55,224 bases of DNA, from positions 1 to 55,224 of IMG/VR virus record IMGVR_UViG_3300026187_000019. One strand, given 5' to 3'. The notes below the pieces were generated by a model that ran no database searches, had not been told where the DNA came from, and saw only the letters and a program-made list of their open reading frames with translations. Positions 107 to 55,224 of the stretch are shown piece after piece (position 1 is the stretch's first letter; each line of letters opens with the position of its first letter). Origin of the DNA: a virus. Taxonomy: Duplodnaviria; Caudoviricetes. The position numbers and the translations under genes were made by a program.

Positions 107-274
107 ATGATTGATTTTATCATCGCCTTGTTTCTAATCGTCACCAGTGCAGTCATTGGACTGCTGTCTGTCATGTCACTAGCGGCTGGTGTGCCGGGTA
201 TGGGTTGGGTTGCACTTGGCTGTGTGGCTTGCTTTGTCGGTGGCTGGGTAATCATTGCAACGGAGTTGTCATAA
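107..274 (+). CDS. 55-aa two-TM membrane protein (not in ORF track)
   Basis: MIDFIIALFLIVTSAVIGLLSVMSLAAGVPGMGWVALGCVACFVGGWVIIATELS; GGAG RBS; TAATG coupling to the next gene. Confidence 0.75.
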   Translation: MIDFIIALFLIVTSAVIGLLSVMSLAAGVPGMGWVALGCVACFVGGWVIIATELS

Positions 275-516
275 TGGCTCGTAAATTCATCACCCCAATG
301 GGTCGCCACAAGCCTGTTCGTTCAAGCTGGGCGGCTATGGATACACAGGCTTTCAGCCGGTCATATGAGCCTGAGACACGGCCTGAGTTTCGGTGCTTTG
401 TGACTGGTCAAGCTGAAGCTATGCAAGCTGAGTATGAAGCGAAGCTGAAGCGTGAGGCACAAATGCAAGCCTTGCTTGACTTGAAGCAAAGGATGCTTGA
501 CAAAAATTTGCTTTAG
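274..516 (+). CDS. Hypothetical early protein (80 aa, MARKFITP...)
   Basis: Start reassigned to ATG 274 (TAATG overlap, GGAG upstream). Confidence 0.7.
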   Translation: MARKFITPMGRHKPVRSSWAAMDTQAFSRSYEPETRPEFRCFVTGQAEAMQAEYEAKLKREAQMQALLDLKQRMLDKNLL

Positions 517-526
517 TGTGAATAAC

Positions 527-562
527 GTAAATACACTTGAAACATAGTGAAAGTGTATTTAC
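527..562 (+). promoter_or_regulatory. Hairpin with GA..TAGTGA loop (copy A)
   Basis: Perfect 12-bp stem GTAAATACACTT/AAGTGTATTTAC, loop GAAACATAGTGA; TTGACA at 497-502 upstream. Confidence 0.75.
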
Positions 563-581
563 TTATATACACTACTAACTT

Positions 582-597
582 AGTCCGATGTCGGACT
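582..597. promoter_or_regulatory. 16-bp palindrome AGTCCGATGTCGGACT
   Basis: Exact copy; upstream of GGAG and ATG 617. Confidence 0.85.
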
Positions 598-616
598 TAA
601 CCAAACGGAGTTTGAT

Positions 617-889
617 ATGCAAAATCGTAAAGATGAATTGATACAAACATTGTGGGATTTGTTCAAGGATGTACACGGTGTACGTCCTCGTGGCATAGAC
701 TATGACCGTTGGTCAGTGACTGACCTTGAGTGGGAAGTAGCTATGCTACAGCGTCAGCTTGAGGATGACTTGCGCTGGGAACGTGAGCAGGAAGACCGTG
801 CAATCAATGCTTGCATGGACTGTGGTGCCAGTGACATAGCTACGGCTATGCGTTGGCTTGAGGATGCCTATGATATGGAGTGGGTGTAA
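617..889 (+). CDS. Hypothetical early protein (90 aa)
   Basis: GGAG RBS; DLFKDVHGVRPR motif seen in small phage proteins. Confidence 0.8.
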   Translation: MQNRKDELIQTLWDLFKDVHGVRPRGIDYDRWSVTDLEWEVAMLQRQLEDDLRWEREQEDRAINACMDCGASDIATAMRWLEDAYDMEWV

Positions 890-1053
890 TGTCAAAATTG
901 GATAAATTTTGTGATAAATACTATGCCATCACTGGTCTACCTTTCAGGTTTGACGGTGGCTTGTATCTTATGGACACGGATGATGATGGCAATGCTGTTA
1001 TTACAGACATTAGCCAAGCGGAGAATGATGATGCAAACCGGAAAGATTGTTAA
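889..1053 (+). CDS. Hypothetical protein (54 aa, MSKLDKFCDKYY...)
   Basis: TAATG coupling, GGAG RBS; translated by hand. Confidence 0.6.
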   Translation: MSKLDKFCDKYYAITGLPFRFDGGLYLMDTDDDGNAVITDISQAENDDANRKDC

Positions 1054-1237
1054 ACTACAAGGCAAGACCCGTCATGGCAAAAACCGTGTGAATGAACACG
1101 GCGAGTTTTGGCAGGTGCTTGACCTACCCAAGCGTATACCCGAATGGCCTACTGGTACATTCCGCTTGCAGTCTCTTGAGACTGGTGATATACGTTGGCT
1201 ATCGAATGACTTTACTGCAACCATTGTTACGGAGTAA
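1028..1237 (+). CDS. Hypothetical protein (MMQTGKIVKLQGKTRHGKNRV...)
   Basis: GGAG RBS before tandem ATGs at 1025/1028/1031; exact start uncertain. Confidence 0.7.
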   Translation: MMQTGKIVKLQGKTRHGKNRVNEHGEFWQVLDLPKRIPEWPTGTFRLQSLETGDIRWLSNDFTATIVTE

Positions 1238-1241
1238 CACT

Positions 1242-1943
1242 ATGACTTACCAAATCTTAGGCGTTGGCAATAATGCCAAGACAATCAAGGGTGATGGCTC
1301 AGAATATGTGACAGCTATCCGCTATCTCAAGCCGTTCAAGACCATGTTCAAGGGCAAGGTGCATAACCTATGCGCTATGGCTGAGACAGCCAAGTGCCAT
1401 GTCGGTTGCCTCAATACGGCAGGGCGTGGTGCTATGAACGCTGTGCAACGTGGTCGTGAACGCAAGACTATGTGGATGCTGTCTGACCCTATCGGGTTCT
1501 ATGATGCCTTGAACAAAGACATTGAGACATTCATTCGCCGCCAACTCAAGAACGGCATCACGCCGTGTATCCGTCTGGGTGGCACAGATGACAAGGGTGA
1601 CGCTATCAAGCTGGCACCAAATTATCCTGATGCACAGTTTTATGATTACACTAAAGTAATCAAACGTGCCTATCAAAAGTTGCCTGACAACTACCATATC
1701 ACCTTGTCATACAGCGAAGCCGATATGAAGTATGCTGATGCTGTGGTCATGGCTGTGGTCAAGACAGGTGTCAACATGGCTGTGGTATTCCGTGACAAGC
1801 TGCCCGATACATTCCGTGGCTTGCGTGTCATTGATGGCGACAAGGATGACTTGCGCTTTCTTGACCCGAAGGGTGTAGTCGTTGGCTTGATTGCCAAGGG
1901 CAAAGCTAAAAAAGATACGTCAGGCTTTGTGATTGACTGCTAA
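1242..1943 (+). CDS. Gene product 88-like, radical-SAM-related phage protein
   Basis: Cys cluster CAMAETAKCHVGCLNTAGRG plus IRLGGTDD, FYDYTK and DGDKDDLRFLD motifs; GGAG RBS before ATG 1242. Confidence 0.65.
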   Translation: MTYQILGVGNNAKTIKGDGSEYVTAIRYLKPFKTMFKGKVHNLCAMAETAKCHVGCLNTAGRGAMNAVQRGRERKTMWMLSDPIGFYDALNKDIETFIRRQLKNGITPCIRLGGTDDKGDAIKLAPNYPDAQFYDYTKVIKRAYQKLPDNYHITLSYSEADMKYADAVVMAVVKTGVNMAVVFRDKLPDTFRGLRVIDGDKDDLRFLDPKGVVVGLIAKGKAKKDTSGFVIDC

Positions 1944-5438: not shown

Positions 5439-6272
5439 ATGCCATTAGAATACATCCCTGAGAACCTCGACTTTGATGTAACCTTTGAGCCTACTCGTGT
5501 AGCTGACAAGAAGTATGTCATTGATGGCAACACTGGCGAACCTATCGCTATCGTGGGCAAGGACTTCACCTGTGCATCACATGGTGATTTCTTCCGTGAC
5601 GTTATGTCAACTGTGACAGACAACCTGACTGATGAGCAGACAGATGGTGCGTCTATTGTGTGGCGTGATGCTCACCGCAATGGCTGGGCTATGATGGACA
5701 TGACCTTGCCTAACATGAAGCATACCATCGTTACACCAAAGCATGAGACAGAGATAGCACAGCGTATCATTGCACTGCATGGTGTGGACGGTACATGTTC
5801 AAACACTGTGTTGTTTGGTGCTATCGACTTCTTTTGCACCAACGGTATGATTCGTGGTGAGCATGACAAGGTGCGCCGTAAGAACACTAGCGGCTTTAGC
5901 CTTGACAGATTCATTACACAGTTGGGCAAGTCAAATGATGACTTCACTAACTACCATCAGCAGATGCAACGCTGGGCTAACACCCCTGTGCATGTGAGCA
6001 ATGTCAAAGCTATGCTTGAATCGCTGCTCAAGTCTGACCGCACCGCCGACAAGATGCTTACCTTATACAATCAGGAAGCGGGTGTGCGTGGACAGAATGT
6101 GTGGGCATTGTATTCTGCATTCACCAACTACGCATCGTATGCTGATGAGCGTAATGGCTTCAAGCTGCGTAACACTGGTGGCGATACCAACGCTGTTAAC
6201 ATGTTCAAGCGTGAGCATGAAGTGTCACAGTGGATTGAAAGCAAGCAGTTCAAGGAGTTGATTGCAGCATGA
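5439..6272 (+). CDS. DUF932-family protein
   Basis: HGVDGTCS and FFCTNGM motifs and ~280-aa size typical of DUF932. Confidence 0.7.
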   Translation: MPLEYIPENLDFDVTFEPTRVADKKYVIDGNTGEPIAIVGKDFTCASHGDFFRDVMSTVTDNLTDEQTDGASIVWRDAHRNGWAMMDMTLPNMKHTIVTPKHETEIAQRIIALHGVDGTCSNTVLFGAIDFFCTNGMIRGEHDKVRRKNTSGFSLDRFITQLGKSNDDFTNYHQQMQRWANTPVHVSNVKAMLESLLKSDRTADKMLTLYNQEAGVRGQNVWALYSAFTNYASYADERNGFKLRNTGGDTNAVNMFKREHEVSQWIESKQFKELIAA

Positions 6273-7147
6273 AGACAGTAAAACATCTTGTGGATAAGTA
6301 TTACAATTCCAATGATTTCAAGATGTTACGAAGCAGAACTAAGAAAGACTATAAATACTTTCTTGGCATCATGCTAGATGATTTTGGCTCTGTGAAATTT
6401 TGTGAACTCACAAGTAAGCAAGCCAAACATGCATACGAAGGCTGGGTTGAGCGAGGCATTAGCCTTGCCAACCACGTCTGTACTGTGTCATCTATTCTGT
6501 TTCGTTACGCCATTGACATGGAGTATGCAACGGTCAATCCCTTTGCCAATGTCAGGCGCAAGACACCACCACAACGCAAAGTTGTGTGGACAGAGGATGA
6601 TGTGCGTCAATTCCTTGACACTGCCTATGGTGAGTTTCAGTGGCGCAGCATTGGCCTGATTGTACACATGGCATACGAGTGGTGCCAGCGTCTAGGTGAT
6701 ATGCGTCTGTTGACGTGGGACAACATTGACTTGGAAGAACACAAGCTATATCTTGAGCAGTCTAAGCGCAGGGCAGAGGTGACTTTGCCTATCGAAGATG
6801 ACTTGCTTGAGATGCTGACACAACAAGAGCAGGACTTTGGCTTTCAACAGTACGTTGTTCCCCGCACAACGCCCGTACAGGGCGAGTATCACCCGTACAG
6901 CATGGAACGTCTATCCAAAGCTGGAAGGGCTGTCATGCGTGAAGCTGGGCTGTCTGAGGAACTACGCCTGATGGACTTGCGGCGTACTGGCACAACACAA
7001 ATGGTAGAGGCAGGTGTACCTATGGGACAAATCATGTCGGTTACAGGACATAGTAATCCACAGTCAGTAAAACCGTACATGAAAAATACATACGCCAGTG
7101 CAAATAGTGCCTTGACAGCACGTAAGTCACATGGTAAAAGCACTTAA
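6269..7147 (+). CDS. Tyrosine integrase/recombinase
   Basis: Catalytic pattern QRLGD (R), QSKR (K), MDLRRT, TGHS (H), VKPY (Y). Confidence 0.9.
   Translation: MKTVKHLVDKYYNSNDFKMLRSRTKKDYKYFLGIMLDDFGSVKFCELTSKQAKHAYEGWVERGISLANHVCTVSSILFRYAIDMEYATVNPFANVRRKTPPQRKVVWTEDDVRQFLDTAYGEFQWRSIGLIVHMAYEWCQRLGDMRLLTWDNIDLEEHKLYLEQSKRRAEVTLPIEDDLLEMLTQQEQDFGFQQYVVPRTTPVQGEYHPYSMERLSKAGRAVMREAGLSEELRLMDLRRTGTTQMVEAGVPMGQIMSVTGHSNPQSVKPYMKNTYASANSALTARKSHGKST
7112..7140 (+). promoter_or_regulatory. Possible sigma70 promoter for replication genes
   Basis: TTGACA-N17-TAAAAG with TG extension, inside the integrase 3' end. Confidence 0.5.
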
Positions 7148-7172
7148 CTGCCGCAACGAAAGTGAGTATATA

Positions 7173-7943
7173 ATGAATAATATATATAACATTATAAGTG
7201 ATATAGATGTACCCAATGGACAGACTAAACGTATGAACTGTCCTAATTGTGGTGGGTACAAGACCTTCACTGTTACTAACAACATGGGTAGCCTTGTGTG
7301 GAATTGCTACAAGGCATCCTGTAATGTAAGTGGCGGCAACCGTGTGCATCTCACAGTGGATGACATACGGTCAGGCATGGGTAACGTAGCTGAGTTTGCT
7401 GATGAGACATTTGATATGCCATCGTATATCATACCGCACAGAAACAAGCGTACTGTGCTTGCCTTCTGTTACCAGTACAGGCTAGACCCAGATGAGTTGG
7501 GTGTGATGTATGATGTGAAGGATGACAGGATTGTATTTCCTGTAGTGCATGACGGTGTGACCGTTGATGCTACAGGCCGTGCCATTGGTAAGCGATTACC
7601 TAAATGGAAACGATATGGAAAAAGTGGCTTGCCTTACACCGTTGGGTGTGGTAAAGTCGCAGTTGTTGTTGAGGACTGTGTGAGTGCAGCCGTGGTTGGT
7701 GGCAAATCCTTTGTCGGGGTTGCGATACTTGGTACATCTCTACAAGAGTCGCATAAAGGGTATCTCGCACAGTTCTCAACAGCCGTAATTGCATTAGACC
7801 CCGATGCACTACCCAAGACTTTGCAGATGGCAAAGGAACTACGTGGTCACGTAAACGATGTTCGTGTCCTACGTTTGAACGATGATTTGAAATATCGTAA
7901 CCCGACAGATATGGAGAACTTATATGGAATTATCAATCATTAG
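7173..7943 (+). CDS. DNA primase (zinc finger + TOPRIM)
   Basis: CPNC...CYKASC zinc-binding domain; VVVEDCVSA and ALDPDA TOPRIM motifs. Confidence 0.85.
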   Translation: MNNIYNIISDIDVPNGQTKRMNCPNCGGYKTFTVTNNMGSLVWNCYKASCNVSGGNRVHLTVDDIRSGMGNVAEFADETFDMPSYIIPHRNKRTVLAFCYQYRLDPDELGVMYDVKDDRIVFPVVHDGVTVDATGRAIGKRLPKWKRYGKSGLPYTVGCGKVAVVVEDCVSAAVVGGKSFVGVAILGTSLQESHKGYLAQFSTAVIALDPDALPKTLQMAKELRGHVNDVRVLRLNDDLKYRNPTDMENLYGIINH

Positions 7944-53545: not shown

Positions 53546-53595
53546 TGTCAAGAACTTTCTTTGTATAGCACGAATAATCTTTGCACGTAGGGATA

Positions 53596-53730
53596 CACTA
53601 TAAGTGTTATCACTTAGAGTGCATTAACAAAGAAAATTTAGTAAGGACTAACTTATGTACATTTAAGTGATATAGTTAATAAGTTTTTTAAGAATTATTA
53701 TATAAACATTTAAGTGTATCACTTTAAGTG
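53596..53730. repeat. Cluster of five CA(C/T)T..AGTG boxes
   Basis: CACTATAAGTG 53596, CACTTAGAGTG 53611, ACATTTAAGTG 53659 and 53706, CACTTTAAGTG 53720, in very AT-rich DNA. Confidence 0.75.
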
Positions 53731-53746
53731 AGTTTAGTTATACATA

Positions 53747-53775
53747 ATTATATCAGATTTTTTATAGGCTGTCAA
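53747..53775 (-). promoter_or_regulatory. Perfect-consensus sigma70 promoter of the late arm
   Basis: Minus strand TTGACA-N17-TATAAT with TG extension. Confidence 0.85.
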
Positions 53776-54044
53776 CCCCCCTTTTGCAAAATAGTTCAAA
53801 TGGTCCATACACCCCCTTACAGTTGCCTATTATTTAGGCAGTTGCACAATGCTTGTGCATATAGGTAGTGACAGTTGCTCTTGTGGTTAACAATCAATTT
53901 ACCTGATCTGTGTATTTCTGTGTATACATATCTACGCTACCCCCCGGTGGCTCCTGCCTGCCCCCTCATCTAAGGCGTGTATGCCTCTGCATTATGCGCA
54001 ACCAGCCGCCTCATTAGGGAGCCATCTGAGTAAGCCCTTGATAT

Positions 54045-54335
54045 TGCATAGAATATGCAGTAAGTAATCCGGCAATTCAGTTGTAAACAACTGTTATGGT
54101 ATCAGTTGCCATACGAAGTATGACTGTAAAAGTCCAACAATACAGATTTGTAACGAAGTTACAAGGTTGATGCATCTAATCTTTTCACCAAAGGTGAACC
54201 ACAAGTCCGATGTCGGACTACACCCCCTATCACTGAAGGTGATAGTCATACCAGCTACCACAATCTGCCAAGCCTCGCTATGTGTCACGAGTTTAGCGCA
54301 CGAGTTTCGCTATCGAAGATAGCTGCAACCGTAGG
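54045..54335 (+). other. Array of short triloop hairpins
   Basis: Stems at 54045, 54110, 54148, 54184, 54227, 54309 and 54329 with loops GAA, GAA, GAA, AAA, GAA, GAA, GTA. Confidence 0.75.
54204..54219. promoter_or_regulatory. 16-bp palindrome AGTCCGATGTCGGACT
   Basis: Exact copy embedded in the hairpin array. Confidence 0.85.
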
Positions 54336-54410
54336 CGAAACGGCTTGGGCAGAGGATCACACACAAGGCTTCAACCCCAAACCTTAACTATCTTCTTACG
54401 GTTTTAAGGT

Positions 54411-54444
54411 ATATAGCCCCTTGAACGTAGTGAAAGGGTTATAT
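54411..54444 (+). promoter_or_regulatory. Hairpin with GA..TAGTGA loop (copy C)
   Basis: Stem ATATAGCCCCTT/AAGGGTTATAT (bulge, G-T pair), loop GAACGTAGTGA; upstream of ATG 54481. Confidence 0.7.
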
Positions 54445-54480
54445 CCCTATAAAACCTAAAGATAGATAAGAGGAACCGAA

Positions 54481-55119
54481 ATGCAAAACTCAATCAAAAA
54501 ATCTTTCGCCATTCAGCTTGCTGAAGCACCAAACACAAATGAAGCCAAAGGCTTGGTATTGTCCCGTTGGGACAAGTCAATCACCAAAGGTGATGTCAAT
54601 CGCTTCAAGAAACTCTGTGAGTTTGCTGGTTTCTGGTTCACCCTTGGTGAAATCCTTGTCCGGCTTCGGACTGAATCCGGCGGTAGCCGGACTGATTCAG
54701 CTTTGCTGAAGAATGCCAACCTTCATACCGTTGCAAAGCAACGCCGTAGTGAAGCCATGAAGTTCTTTGAGAACTTCCATGTAATCGTTGAAAACGATTT
54801 GCTCGGCAAGAAATCTACGATTTGCCACATGAAGGATCTGCTGAAAGCAGTGGACAAAATCGTCAACCCAAAGGTTGAAGATGAGCCAGTCCTTGAAGCT
54901 ACTATCGTAGCTGATGAGCCAGAGGTTCTGGCTATCGAAGATAAGTCCAGCGAAGCTGTACCACAGTCTAAAAAGACTGCTGAAGATTTGGCTCTTGAGG
55001 TTCTACTGCAAGTAGAACTTAATGAGGTCAGCCTTGCTGACTTCAAGATTGCCATGGCAAATGCCATTGGCATGATTGAGCAGAACAACGAAGTTGTCCC
55101 ATTTGAGGCTGTAGGGTAA
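54481..55119 (+). CDS. First early gene, hypothetical (212 aa)
   Basis: GAGGA RBS; long ORF with biased codon usage. Confidence 0.85.
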   Translation: MQNSIKKSFAIQLAEAPNTNEAKGLVLSRWDKSITKGDVNRFKKLCEFAGFWFTLGEILVRLRTESGGSRTDSALLKNANLHTVAKQRRSEAMKFFENFHVIVENDLLGKKSTICHMKDLLKAVDKIVNPKVEDEPVLEATIVADEPEVLAIEDKSSEAVPQSKKTAEDLALEVLLQVELNEVSLADFKIAMANAIGMIEQNNEVVPFEAVG

Positions 55120-55224
55120 TCCCCTACAGTCTACCTTTTCACTAGTCCGATGTCGGACTTAACAATACGGAGTATTGAATATGATTGATTTTATCATCGC
55201 CTTGTTTCTAATCGTCACCAGTGC
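55074..55224. repeat. Terminal overlap of circular assembly (copy 2)
   Basis: Duplicate of 1-150. Confidence 0.95.

Follow-up and report, generated by a model that had tools for sequence, protein, structure and literature searches.

Evidence for a selected field of mini-hairpins across the early region of an HMO-2011-type phage

HMO-2011-type phages, whose hosts are SAR116 and Roseobacter bacteria, form a group that is very abundant in the sea. The window considered here, meaning the whole 55,224-nucleotide stretch of IMG/VR record IMGVR_UViG_3300026187_000019, is a complete podophage genome of this type. Its bases 1-150 repeat 55075-55224, and the map closes into a circle through this 150-bp overlap. 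Two gene blocks diverge from a 930-bp intergenic region, the right half of which spans 53980..54480. The rightward (+) block carries the replication genes; a DnaB-like helicase, a family-A polymerase and endonuclease I are encoded in the window, a primase is annotated in HMO-2011, and no recognisable initiator protein was found with this T7-like replication set. A perfect sigma-70 promoter is present for the leftward block. Upstream of the hairpin field described below, no rightward sigma-70 promoter is found at 9/12, the best relaxed matches reaching 8/12. The intergenic block with the strongest conservation is promoter-like, and the field begins just downstream of it. Between 53300 and 55224, no intrinsic terminator is found on the + strand and two terminator-like sites lie on the - strand inside gene 1. 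The cumulative GC skew has its minimum at the field and its maximum at 17-18 kb, a turn that is not independent evidence because it coincides with the switch in gene orientation. Two other ideas about the locus were dropped: a tRNA or attachment site, as the genome holds no tRNA genes, and the reading of the invariant TGTGGTTAA (53882) as a DnaA box, since matches with at most one mismatch number 20 genome-wide against 18 expected by chance.

The field comprises about 45 perfect hairpins with stems of 5-8 bp and loops of 3-4 nt, roughly one per 25 nt, and starts near 54045, spans the 212-aa first gene and ends, past the wrap, near 1400, some 2.4 kb in all. A first-pass annotation, made from the sequence alone, had described an array within 400 non-coding bp; it is indeed dense there, but it also spans the first gene and the region beyond. 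Against 1000 dinucleotide shuffles, 54045-54444 holds five perfect triloop hairpins whose stems measure 5 bp or more (0.36 expected), four of them with GAA loops (0.003 expected), numbers that no shuffle reaches, and it has no TNC loop. Over the early 2,355 bp the count rises to 29 triloop hairpins (2.42 expected), 11 of them with GNA loops (0.19 expected), again with no shuffle having as many, and GNA exceeds TNC by 11 to 1. The enrichment is local: the remaining 52,719 bp is at background, with 63 triloop hairpins against 60.6 expected, none with a GNA loop and five with TNC, and the genome's unique + strand GNA hairpins number 11, every one of them placed between 54045 and, past the wrap, 1240. 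The field is the sole hot spot in a genome-wide profile of 500-nt bins, where hairpins with 3-4-nt loops average 1.66 per bin; the densest bin, 54500-54999 in the first gene, holds 18, the bins starting at 0, 500 and 1000 hold 5, 7 and 5, and the leftward block shows no such field. Chance or composition as the cause of the hairpins is ruled out by the shuffles and this profile. In Rfam 15, no model matches the field near its gathering score, the best being a microRNA model on the opposite strand (E 0.076, 26 bits versus 77).

The non-coding part of the field (53980..54480, + strand) was examined by hairpin listing, shuffles and fold z-scores, and was aligned in 27 distinct relatives. The hairpins that had been listed at 54045, 54078, 54110, 54148, 54184, 54204, 54227 and 54309 are all found at those positions. 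The first, TGCATA-GAA-TATGCA (54045..54059, +), is replaced in relatives by the stems AGCATT, TACATC, AACATT and TACATT, with two-sided changes at 4/6 pairs. The second, CAGTTG-TAAA-CAACTG (54078..54093, +), has a conserved stem and a variable loop, and lacks covariation evidence because two-sided changes occur at none of its pairs. It overlaps, as does the third, a 25-nt block, CAACTGTTATGGTATCAGTTGCCAT (54088..54112, +), which served as the anchor for gathering relatives, its pattern with two degenerate positions occurring in 38 stretches of viral_contigs; the block has an alternative pairing, ATGGTA/TGCCAT. The third hairpin, CATAC-GAA-GTATG (54110..54122, +), varies to CATCC-AAA, CATCT-GAA, CATGC-TTTA, CATGTC-GAA and CATATC-GAA, and the fourth, TTGTAAC-GAA-GTTACAA (54148..54164, +), has two-sided changes at 5/7 pairs, its variants including TTACAAC-AA-GTTGTAA, TTGCATC-GAA and TCCACT-GAA. 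The site of TTCACC-AAA-GGTGAA (54184..54198, +) is occupied in HMO-2011 by TACCCT-TAC-AGGGTA. At 54227..54245 (+), CTATCAC-TGAAG-GTGATAG has a 7-bp stem; the eighth pair claimed for it is a T.G that closes the GAA core, and its HMO-2011 counterpart is CTATCACC-GAA-GG(A)TGATAG.

A conserved core block follows at 54286..54362 (+), with about 79-84% identity to the Roseobacter phages CRP-1 and CRP-345. It contains the CACGAGTTT direct repeat seen, as annotated, at 54286/54299, the hairpin GCTATC-GAA-GATAGC (54309..54323, +) and the GAAACGGC and GCAGAGGAT blocks. Thirteen matched relatives display eight stem/loop combinations of this hairpin, to which CRP-1 adds GGTATC-GAA and CRP-345 adds GCAATC-TTA. 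Further on, hairpin C is CCCTT-GAACGTAGTGA-AAGGG (54418..54438, +); relatives add an outer GGGATATA/TATATCCC stem, and its stems co-vary (CCTCTT/AAGAGG, CCCTCT/AGAGGG, TCACCA/TGGTGA). Hairpins with TAGTGA loops that resemble hairpin C to the eye lie at ~531-575 and ~1968-2016. Two elements that had been counted with the array, CC-GTA-GG (54329) and AC-GTA-GT, are discounted because their stems are only 2 bp and are not kept in HMO-2011. A third such element, the 16-bp palindrome AGTCCG-ATGT-CGGACT (54204..54219, +), belongs to a separate class. The early region holds five unique exact copies of it, each on the + strand (0.14 expected), the second at 55144..55159 (+; 70-85 in the end overlap) and the third at 582-597 (+); its arms are conserved, and its half-site co-varies with the gene-1 protein family; it is probably the operator of the gene-1 protein.

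The first gene (54481..55119, +) encodes a 212-aa protein (P0001) of a family conserved in 22 aligned relatives, and its coding sequence strings together 23 perfect hairpins whose loops are 3-4 nt long, a density equalled in relatives and in CRP-1 gp01. Pairing is kept through amino-acid changes, ATCACC/GGTGAT becoming ATCAGC/GCTGAT and ATCTGC/GCAGAT, and TTCACC/GGTGAA becoming TTCTCC/GGAGAA and TTTACC/GGTAAA. A structure model of the protein (mean pLDDT 77.9) finds nothing in the PDB at E <= 0.001 with Foldseek; a wide search gave at best the KorB DNA-binding domain (Z 5.0, rmsd 3.6, 89 residues), a lead only, as such a score is at the noise level for helical proteins. Translation signals sit within hairpins here and further on. 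The gene-1 stop codon lies in the loop of CTGTAGGG-TAATC-CCCTACAG (55109..55129, +), the gene-2 start codon opens a hairpin, and at least four ribosome-binding sites are placed in GGA triloops. These are the gene-2 Shine-Dalgarno GGAG in CAATAC-GGA-GTATTG (55163..55177, equivalent to 89-103, +), for which HMO-2011 has TAATAC-GGA-GTATTA; CAAAC-GGA-GTTTG (602-614, +), which follows the third palindrome copy and serves a gene starting at 617; TGTTAC-GGA-GTAACA (1225..1239, +), the last GNA hairpin of the field, which serves a gene starting at 1242 and has an identical hairpin at HMO-2011 position 452; and a 4-bp version at 258. Their stems co-vary in HMO-2011 and CRP-1. The tail of the field covers the small early genes 2-6 (151..1400, +), and past ~1400 the density falls to background.

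In an alignment of 26 distinct relatives (610 stem cells, 24 pairs, 500 shuffles), 97.7% of the stem cells pair and two-sided changes occur in 11 of the 24 pairs, in 78 cells, a result that none of the 500 shuffles reaches; in the control with partners slid by 1-3 columns, 21-53% pair. G.U accounts for 6 of the 610 cells (~1%) and other mismatches for 8, and GC-to-AU exchanges in both directions are frequent. The clustering recurs in HMO-2011, where 9 of the 13 GNA hairpins are positional homologues, and in CRP-1. The array is thus present in relatives, with its stems turning over and its pairing and GNA or A-rich loops retained, and this supports the view that the region is selected to fold as a single strand.

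Compensation almost always swaps one Watson-Crick pair straight for another, and intermediates are few, exactly as arm-to-arm correction would have it. The hairpins could then be functionless by-products of template switching between arms, which would perfect near-palindromes in a region that is often single-stranded. We regard this as very improbable: hairpin positions are kept in relatives of 50-70% identity as well as in phages that infect other host groups, both the loops and the closing pairs show a strong bias, and amino-acid changes have been accepted for the sake of pairing. The process would, moreover, itself require frequent single-strandedness, which is the core of the explanation preferred below.

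The loop bias points to the + strand as the one that folds. Across the non-coding array of the 27 relatives, GNA loops outnumber TNC by 53 to 3 and GAA outnumber TTC by 44 to 0, and 49% of loop bases are A. The first-pass statement that the loops are never TTC is borne out by these counts, with the qualification that TAC loops occur in 3 of the 27 relatives. Mismatches add a mild overall lean in the same direction, the excess of G.T over A.C suiting + strand folding of either molecule. The ratio of G.T to A.C is 8 to 1 in extended stems and 16 to 10 among distinct one-mismatch hairpins (13 to 8 in a control region); against shuffles, one-mismatch hairpins number 13 for G.T (3.1 expected), 6 for A.C (3.8) and 56 for other mismatches (13.9), and in gene-1 columns G.T and A.C stand at 95 and 106. 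Folding energies are of less help. Fold z-scores of the non-coding field, for both strands and as DNA and RNA, are -5.6, -6.8, -6.3 and -5.8, and overall stability does not separate strands or molecules because the values are alike; in 23 of the 27 relatives it is the - strand that gives the more stable fold as RNA, which we take to be an effect of G+U composition.

Which molecule folds is a finer question, the + strand being also the mRNA sense. Hairpin style is the more DNA-like. Loops of the cGNAg and CNNG kinds are described in the literature as stable in DNA rather than in RNA. Distinct hairpins with loops of 3, 4, 5, 6, 7 and 8 nt number 182, 132, 34, 25, 21 and 19, and the enrichment is limited to the smallest loops; 27 of 88 tetraloops are CNNG, none is GNRA or UNCG, and many nominal tetraloops are in fact C-AA-G. 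Inside the field, 21 of 31 triloops are closed by a 5′C-G3′ pair; outside it the figure is 9 of 57. G.U hardly occurs. This style fits motifs of the DNA-stable kind, with the caveat that very short stems may be intolerant of G.U in RNA too. Of the larger claim that the segment is selected to fold as DNA, the part on selection to fold is supported; as the folding molecule we slightly favour DNA over early RNA, each falling short of an even chance.

If the molecule were RNA, the field would form the structured beginning of an immediate-early transcript, made up of its 5′ leader and first cistrons, and the DNA hairpins would be a by-product. Hairpins forming behind RNA polymerase would shield the leader from Rho and RNases, limit backtracking and gate translation at ribosome-binding sites. 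Several observations suit this reading equally well or better than a DNA one: the loop bias lies on the sense strand of the early genes, the Shine-Dalgarno GGAG sits in co-varying GGA triloops at 55163 (= 89), 602, 1225 and 258, the gene-1 stop codon is in a loop, and the field starts downstream of the most conserved, promoter-like intergenic block. The gene-2 start codon, which opens a hairpin, and the RNA fold z-scores of the leader (-6.3) and of gene 1 (-7.9) are further points for it. RNA-library contigs also cover parts of the leader (X24 record 30 at 53969-54132; X22 record 21 at 54373-54470), which counts weakly as they are strandless and DNA is possibly present; in run X20, contigs cover leftward genes and none has depth on 53961-54524, an absence that proves nothing. 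On the other side stand the 8/12 ceiling for a rightward sigma-70-type promoter upstream, the lack of an Rfam match, G.U at ~1% of stem cells, and the dominance of triloops with neither GNRA nor UNCG tetraloops and with many C-AA-G loops among the nominal tetraloops. The leftward block, which has the perfect sigma-70 promoter, has no field, so the field is not a general habit of the early mRNAs of this phage. Taken together, we consider an RNA role a serious possibility, if hardly a probable one.

The explanation that we prefer, tentatively and at rather less than an even chance, is that the field acts as single-stranded DNA, in a transcription-activated origin or unwinding zone. The + strand is the non-template strand of the early genes, and transcription or unwinding of the region would release it. 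DNA-stable hairpins, with their cGNAg triloops, CNNG loops and C-G closing pairs, would then lock the freed strand; these hairpins would resist reannealing, SSB and nucleases and keep the zone open, and the T7-like set of DnaB-type helicase, primase and family-A polymerase could start replication from it. The physical chemistry would resemble that of the G4 and RSF1010 single-strand initiation hairpins and the N4 promoter hairpins. Precedent exists in the GNA and GNNA mini-hairpins of the G4 complementary-strand origin, RSF1010 ssiA and N4 promoters, to which SSB binds poorly (PMC13037366). An RNA copy would fold likewise by necessity and might be co-opted, for instance for ribosome-binding sites in GGA loops. 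Counting against an origin, about 45 hairpins far exceed the number in any known origin or priming signal. A bolder version of the proposal, which we hold doubtful, is that this is a new cis-acting element, a kilobase-scale field of DNA-stable mini-hairpins that lies on the non-template strand, overrides coding and provides an initiator-free start of replication or unwinding opened by transcription.

DNA hairpins might alternatively serve entry or defence. Lying on the first-entering DNA, they could block exonucleases, make ejection pause or signal its pulling step, or decoy or ward off host sensors of single-stranded or hairpin DNA. GNA mini-hairpins are nuclease-resistant and poor binders of SSB (PMC13037366). 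Nuclease resistance is also ascribed to Streptomyces telomere overhangs, whose seven palindromes per 180 nt have the same spacing as the field, with GNA triloops and sheared G:A pairs; a role in protecting single-stranded DNA and in recruiting priming proteins is proposed for them (PMC5449611). Hairpin DNA does meet host surveillance, because Lamassu DdmABC senses hairpin-forming phage palindromes (PMC11707656); hairpins that trigger a defence would, however, be a cost and not a shield. Injected DNA is double-stranded, moreover, the assembly is circular, and its 150-bp overlap falls inside genes 1 and 2, away from the field edge. Contig ends of relatives do cluster within ~170 nt of the 25-nt anchor (worked out by hand), which we read as assembly breaks at a conserved core between variable hairpins and not as proof of ends. 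We judge such a device improbable.

Promoters of the N4 type, read by a co-injected polymerase, are a further candidate, and the first-pass annotation had drawn this analogy. In N4, promoter hairpins carry a 5′-GGA-3′ loop on the template strand, and their 5-7 bp stems extrude at physiological supercoiling (PMC4496689). The stems of 5-8 bp, GRA triloops and C-G closing pairs of the field match that form, and this phage also has divergent gene blocks, with an unassigned 1195-aa protein as the last gene of the leftward one. The orientation, however, is opposite. Here the sense strand of the early genes bears the GGA loops, and N4-type promoters would therefore fire leftward, antisense to the genes that contain them; the stems, in addition, all differ, no shared flanking sequence is seen by eye, and the sites are far too many. 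A six-frame search with PF00940 gave no match at E <= 1, a weak test as control genomes were silent too, and no single-subunit RNA polymerase was found by Pfam or PHROGs in ~45 scanned proteins, a search that a very divergent enzyme could escape. That the 1195-aa protein might be a polymerase in disguise was also rejected. Neither the PDB (by sequence) nor Pfam nor PHROGs gave a match to it, and the named protein-atlas clusters closest to it, which are leads only, carry domains of large polyvalent or MuF-type proteins (scores 0.89-0.91). This makes N4-type promoters scarcely credible.

In the literature searched, no study links HMO-2011 with hairpins, and the main text of the principal comparative paper on HMO-2011-type phages (PMC9038755) makes no mention of intergenic regions, hairpins, palindromes or RNA polymerase. 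The field is, within that literature, a feature not described before, as the first-pass annotation had supposed, and thus a signal that has gone unnoticed in phages of great abundance. A first gene that accepted amino-acid changes to keep 23 hairpins paired is rare and offers a clean test bed for structure-limited protein evolution. Were the DNA reading true, the natural roles of GNA mini-hairpins, so far N4 promoters, priming signals and telomeres, would gain a kilobase-scale element of a double-stranded DNA phage, and the field would point to the replication start of HMO-2011-type phages; the bolder proposal would amount to a third way of holding an origin open, beside iterons and AT-rich unwinding elements. 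Were the RNA reading true, infection would open with an mRNA structure of unusual density and conservation. On either reading the field is easily recognised in metagenomic sequences and could serve there as a marker for the early end of genomes of this type.

Among known systems, T4 has stable intercistronic hairpins, and structured phage RNAs and leaders resemble the field in having sense-strand hairpins between and at the starts of early cistrons; the field differs from them in its lack of an Rfam match and of GNRA or UNCG loops and in the near absence of G.U. The lambda origin lies inside gene O, an example of origin signals that constrain the coding sequence around them. In-gene origins of that type consist of repeated identical protein-binding sites, whereas in the field all stems differ and only the hairpin form is kept. 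The promoters of N4 share with the field stems of 5-7 bp, 3-nt G-purine-A loops, stem bases that may vary if paired, and a location where the early region begins in a podophage with divergent gene blocks. N4, however, has three sites, conserved from -17 to +1 on the template strand and read by a 3,500-aa injected polymerase, in contrast to about 45 sites on the sense strand, with no common sequence and no polymerase found. Streptomyces telomeres likewise have packed palindromes with GNA loops at ~25-nt spacing, but they form the 3′ end of a linear replicon with terminal proteins, whereas the field is internal in the assembled map, with no fixed end found, overlaps genes and belongs to a phage with a family-A polymerase. 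In the G4 origin and RSF1010 ssiA/ssiB, GNA/GNNA mini-hairpins on single-stranded DNA exclude SSB and mark the primase start (PMC13037366). Those signals are one to three hairpins of conserved sequence in truly single-stranded replicons; the field covers 1.2-2.4 kb with unrelated stems, is coding over much of its length and lies in a double-stranded phage genome. What it shares with them is a set of cGAAg hairpins on the + strand, in a phage group that encodes its own primase and helicase.

The window is the entire genome of an HMO-2011-type podophage. Its bases 1-150 repeat 55075-55224 with one indel, which sits in a C run (CC versus CCC) near the 3′ end of gene 1 (P0001, 54481-55119, + strand) and probably arose by misassembly where the contig ends; the record is classed as linear by IMG/VR. 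Minus-strand genes run from 53551 down to 17898 and + strand genes from 54481 across the wrap to about 17.8 kb. The sole large non-coding region, 53552-54480, is the point from which both gene blocks diverge, and this layout therefore places the finding in a divergent non-coding region. Over 94% of this region there is a 69.7% match to Puniceispirillum phage HMO-2011, and two blocks within it have counterparts in Roseobacter phages CRP-1 and CRP-345 as well.

When perfect stems of 5 bp or more were scanned for mechanically, all the substantial hairpins that the first-pass annotation had listed in 54045-54444 were recovered at their reported positions; the annotation’s two ‘GTA’ items are trivial 2-bp stems, absent from HMO-2011. 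This interval holds five triloop hairpins (0.36 expected) and four GAA triloops (0.003 expected), counts reached by none of 1000 dinucleotide shuffles. The array had been confined to these ~400 non-coding bp; the hairpins are there, but the true array is much larger, forming a field of short perfect + strand hairpins from about 54045 to about 1400 after the wrap, gene 1 included. The stretch from 54045 to 1240 past the wrap takes in every one of the genome’s 11 unique GNA-triloop hairpins on the + strand. The field segment used for shuffling (53980-55224 plus 151-1260, 2,355 bp) contains 29 triloop hairpins versus 2.42 expected (largest shuffle, 8), with 11 GNA loops versus 0.19 expected and one loop of the complementary TNC type, whereas the 52,719 bp outside it contain 63 versus 60.6 expected, with no GNA and five TNC loops. 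With loops of 3-4 nt, 184 hairpins occur genome-wide, on average 1.66 per 500 nt; bin 54500-54999 alone has 18, and half of those with stems of at least 6 bp (33/66) fall within bins 54000-55224 and 0-1499. Equal density or loop bias was found neither elsewhere in the genome nor in shuffled sequence, and the array is present in relatives. The feature is real, highly non-random and conserved, and the field is larger and stranger than first noticed.

Gene 1, of 212 aa, strings together 23 perfect hairpins at a spacing of about 25 nt, and its stop codon lies in the loop of a further one. The RNA fold of this stretch has a z-score of -7.9; the non-coding part of the field gives -5.6 to -6.8, whichever strand and whichever molecule is folded. 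Inside the gene, stems stay paired even where amino acids change: in relatives, ATCACC-AAA-GGTGAT (I T K G D) gives way to ATCAGC-AAA-GCTGAT and ATCTGC-AAA-GCAGAT, TTCACC/GGTGAA to TTCTCC/GGAGAA and TTTACC/GGTAAA, and ATGGC/GCCAT to ATAGC/GCTAT. The gene still codes for a real protein, whose conserved family (22 aligned sequences) comprises three subfamilies among relatives. Its structure model is confidently all-helical over residues 10-130, followed by an acidic, disordered linker with many Pro, Glu and Lys residues and by a small C-domain; neither Pfam nor PHROGs gave the protein a family.

Relatives were gathered by the gene-1 protein, a 20-nt pattern and a 25-nt pattern. The 25-nt anchor, a conserved block at 54088-54112 overlapping hairpins H2 (54078) and H3 (54110), is present in 43 sources; these gave 27 distinct array sequences of 555 nt, with 46-87% identity to the window. 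HMO-2011 differs from the window by paired changes (TTGTAAC/GTTACAA versus TTACAAC/GTTGTAA, and GCTATC-GAA versus GTAATC-GTA), and the stems of H1 (54045) and H5 (54184) are entirely replaced in it. A covariance model of H1-H4 (H4 at 54148), made from eight sequences with the structure set by hand, aligned 28 matches, 26 of them distinct. In this alignment, which was fitted to the structure and is hence biased towards it, 97.7% of 610 stem cells are paired, and two-sided changes, still plain in the raw listing, affect 11 of 24 pairs (78 cells). The covariation score of 0.321 (0.114 in shuffles) was reached by none of 500 shuffles, and only 21-53% of cells pair when partners are slid by 1-3 columns; H2 showed no covariation in the alignment. 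H8 (54309) takes eight stem/loop combinations among 13 matched relatives, with more in CRP-1 and CRP-345. Across most relatives gene 1 carries 5-9 hairpins per 200 nt, CRP-1 gp01 has 14 in 627 nt, and nine of the 13 GNA hairpins of HMO-2011 are positional homologues of the window’s, four of them inside gp74. The most widely conserved part of the array, 54286-54362 (+), is common to CRP-1 and CRP-345 and contains a CACGAGTTT repeat, H8, GAAACGGC and GCAGAGGAT; GTTTC(G) and (C)GAAAC around H8 could pair, and neither varies.

Judged by the loops, it is the + strand that folds. Among 93 triloops in the non-coding arrays of these 27 relatives, 44 are GAA, 12 AAA, five GTA and four GGA, which makes 53 GNA against three TNC; A accounts for 49% of loop bases. 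Mismatch spectra lean only mildly to the + strand, and energy models discriminate neither strand nor molecule. A DNA-level reading, as proposed in the first-pass annotation, is plausible, and DNA is quite possibly the folding molecule, if short of probably so. Leaning this way, G.U occupies 6/610 stem cells, no commoner than other mismatches (8) despite frequent GC<->AU exchanges; only the smallest loops are enriched (182, 132, 34, 25, 21 and 19 distinct hairpins for loops of 3, 4, 5, 6, 7 and 8 nt); the 88 tetraloops include 27 CNNG (CAAG 17, CTTG 10) and no GNRA or UNCG; and a 5′C-G3′ pair closes 21/31 field triloops versus 9/57 elsewhere. In DNA form, C-G-closed GNA/GNNA mini-hairpins are described as exceptionally stable and resistant to nucleases, and as binding SSB poorly (PMC13037366). 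Folding as RNA is only slightly less likely; towards it lean the doubling of the + strand as mRNA strand, four ribosome-binding sites within GGA triloops whose stems co-vary, and the start of the field directly downstream of the intergenic region’s most conserved block. In public RNA runs, whose contigs lack strand information, two contigs touch the leader.

The 16-bp palindrome AGTCCG-ATGT-CGGACT, which had been counted as part of the array, is a distinct element, its arms being conserved and its spacer variable in relatives. Five unique exact copies lie on the + strand of the early region, at 54204-54219, 55144-55159 (= 70-85), 582-597, 2022-2037 and 2690-2705, four just ahead of an early gene and the fifth within the leader. 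The half-site GTCCG..CGGAC occurs in 11/11 phages with a family-A gene 1, and GTCCA..TGGAC in 8/10 with family B (L019 departs from this, and none occurs in L020) and 3/3 with family C. In one relative, L014, a family-B gene and A/T half-sites occur together, although its array shares 87% identity with that of the window. Because the half-site tracks the gene-1 family, L014 included, this correlation, among related phages that share labels, points to the palindrome as a binding site, and probable operator, of the gene-1 protein. The protein’s model weakly resembles the DNA-binding domain of KorB (Z 5.0), which may serve as a lead only.

The intergenic region holds further elements, and its left half also carries strongly conserved blocks. 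A perfect sigma-70 promoter (53775-53747, minus strand; TTGACA, 17 nt, TATAAT, upstream TG), conserved in relatives, points into the leftward block. In that block’s leader, several CACTT..AAGTG-type palindromes at 53590-53740 (e.g. ACACT-ATA-AGTGT, TAAGTG-TTAT-CACTTA and TCACT-TTA-AGTGA) look like operators; in relatives they are kept or swapped for CAGTT..AACTG. Four of the 12 genomic CAGTTGC heptamers (53820, 53839, 53872 and 54103, +) fall within 290 bp, in blocks invariant among relatives; only this clustering is notable, since over the whole genome the heptamer is no commoner than chance predicts. Runs of 4-6 C recur on the + strand at 53767, 53812, 53941, 53962, 54222 and 54376, several of them kept in relatives. 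Three hairpins with a TAGTGA-containing loop and variable stems, read by eye ahead of genes 1, 4 and 7 (54416-54456, ~531-575 and ~1968-2016), may represent a promoter or regulatory class of the phage’s own; each is followed by a TATA-rich hexamer. Worked out by hand, seven contig ends from 6/37 relatives’ contigs (L027/L038, L026, L010, L028, L036, L018) lie within ~170 nt of the 25-nt anchor, and one 56.6-kb contig repeats ~247 nt around it at both ends; such ends could stem from assembly breaks or hint at the physical ends.

The + strand is the non-template strand of the early genes and would be freed when host RNA polymerase transcribes or opens the region; DNA-stable hairpins on it would then hinder reannealing and SSB coating, keeping a long open zone in which a transcript could prime synthesis and helicase and primase could load. 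Genes for an integrase, a DnaB-like helicase, a family-A DNA polymerase, endonuclease I and ribonucleotide reductase lie in the rightward block. The phage has a T7-like replication set, in which no recognisable initiator was found. HMO-2011 has a primase annotated at the position equivalent to 7131-7940, where the window’s ORF gives only weak zinc-ribbon and Toprim matches (E about 0.04). A temperate life style is possible, since a tyrosine-recombinase (phage integrase) gene is present in the window (6269-7144) and in HMO-2011. GC skew turns at the field, which fits a replication start but is confounded by gene orientation. The chief weakness of the open-zone reading is the number of hairpins, about 45, far beyond any known origin.

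Literature searches found no paper joining ‘HMO-2011’ and ‘hairpin’, and no title on this subject for ‘HMO-2011’ with ‘promoter’; the main text of the main comparative paper lacks the terms intergenic, terminal repeat, hairpin, palindrom-, RNA polymerase and non-coding. Within the literature searched, and that paper’s main text, the field is undescribed. A known RNA family and a set of terminators were excluded. In its physical action the field would resemble the promoter hairpins of N4, whose extrusion takes place at physiological supercoiling (PMC4496689). The analogy with N4-type promoters, drawn in the first reading, was rejected for the early genes: N4 carries its 5′-GGA-3′ loop on the template strand (PMC4496689), whereas the GNA loops here are on the sense strand. 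By eye, the hairpins of the field share no common flanking sequence, and no RNA polymerase was found among the phage proteins scanned, a search that a very divergent enzyme could escape. The proposed open zone can be likened to what single-strand initiation hairpins do in G4 and RSF1010. Among known GNA-hairpin arrays the closest is found in telomere overhangs of Streptomyces replicons, where seven palindromes occupy 180 nt (PMC5449611); the phage field differs in that it lies inside the assembled map and in part is coding sequence.
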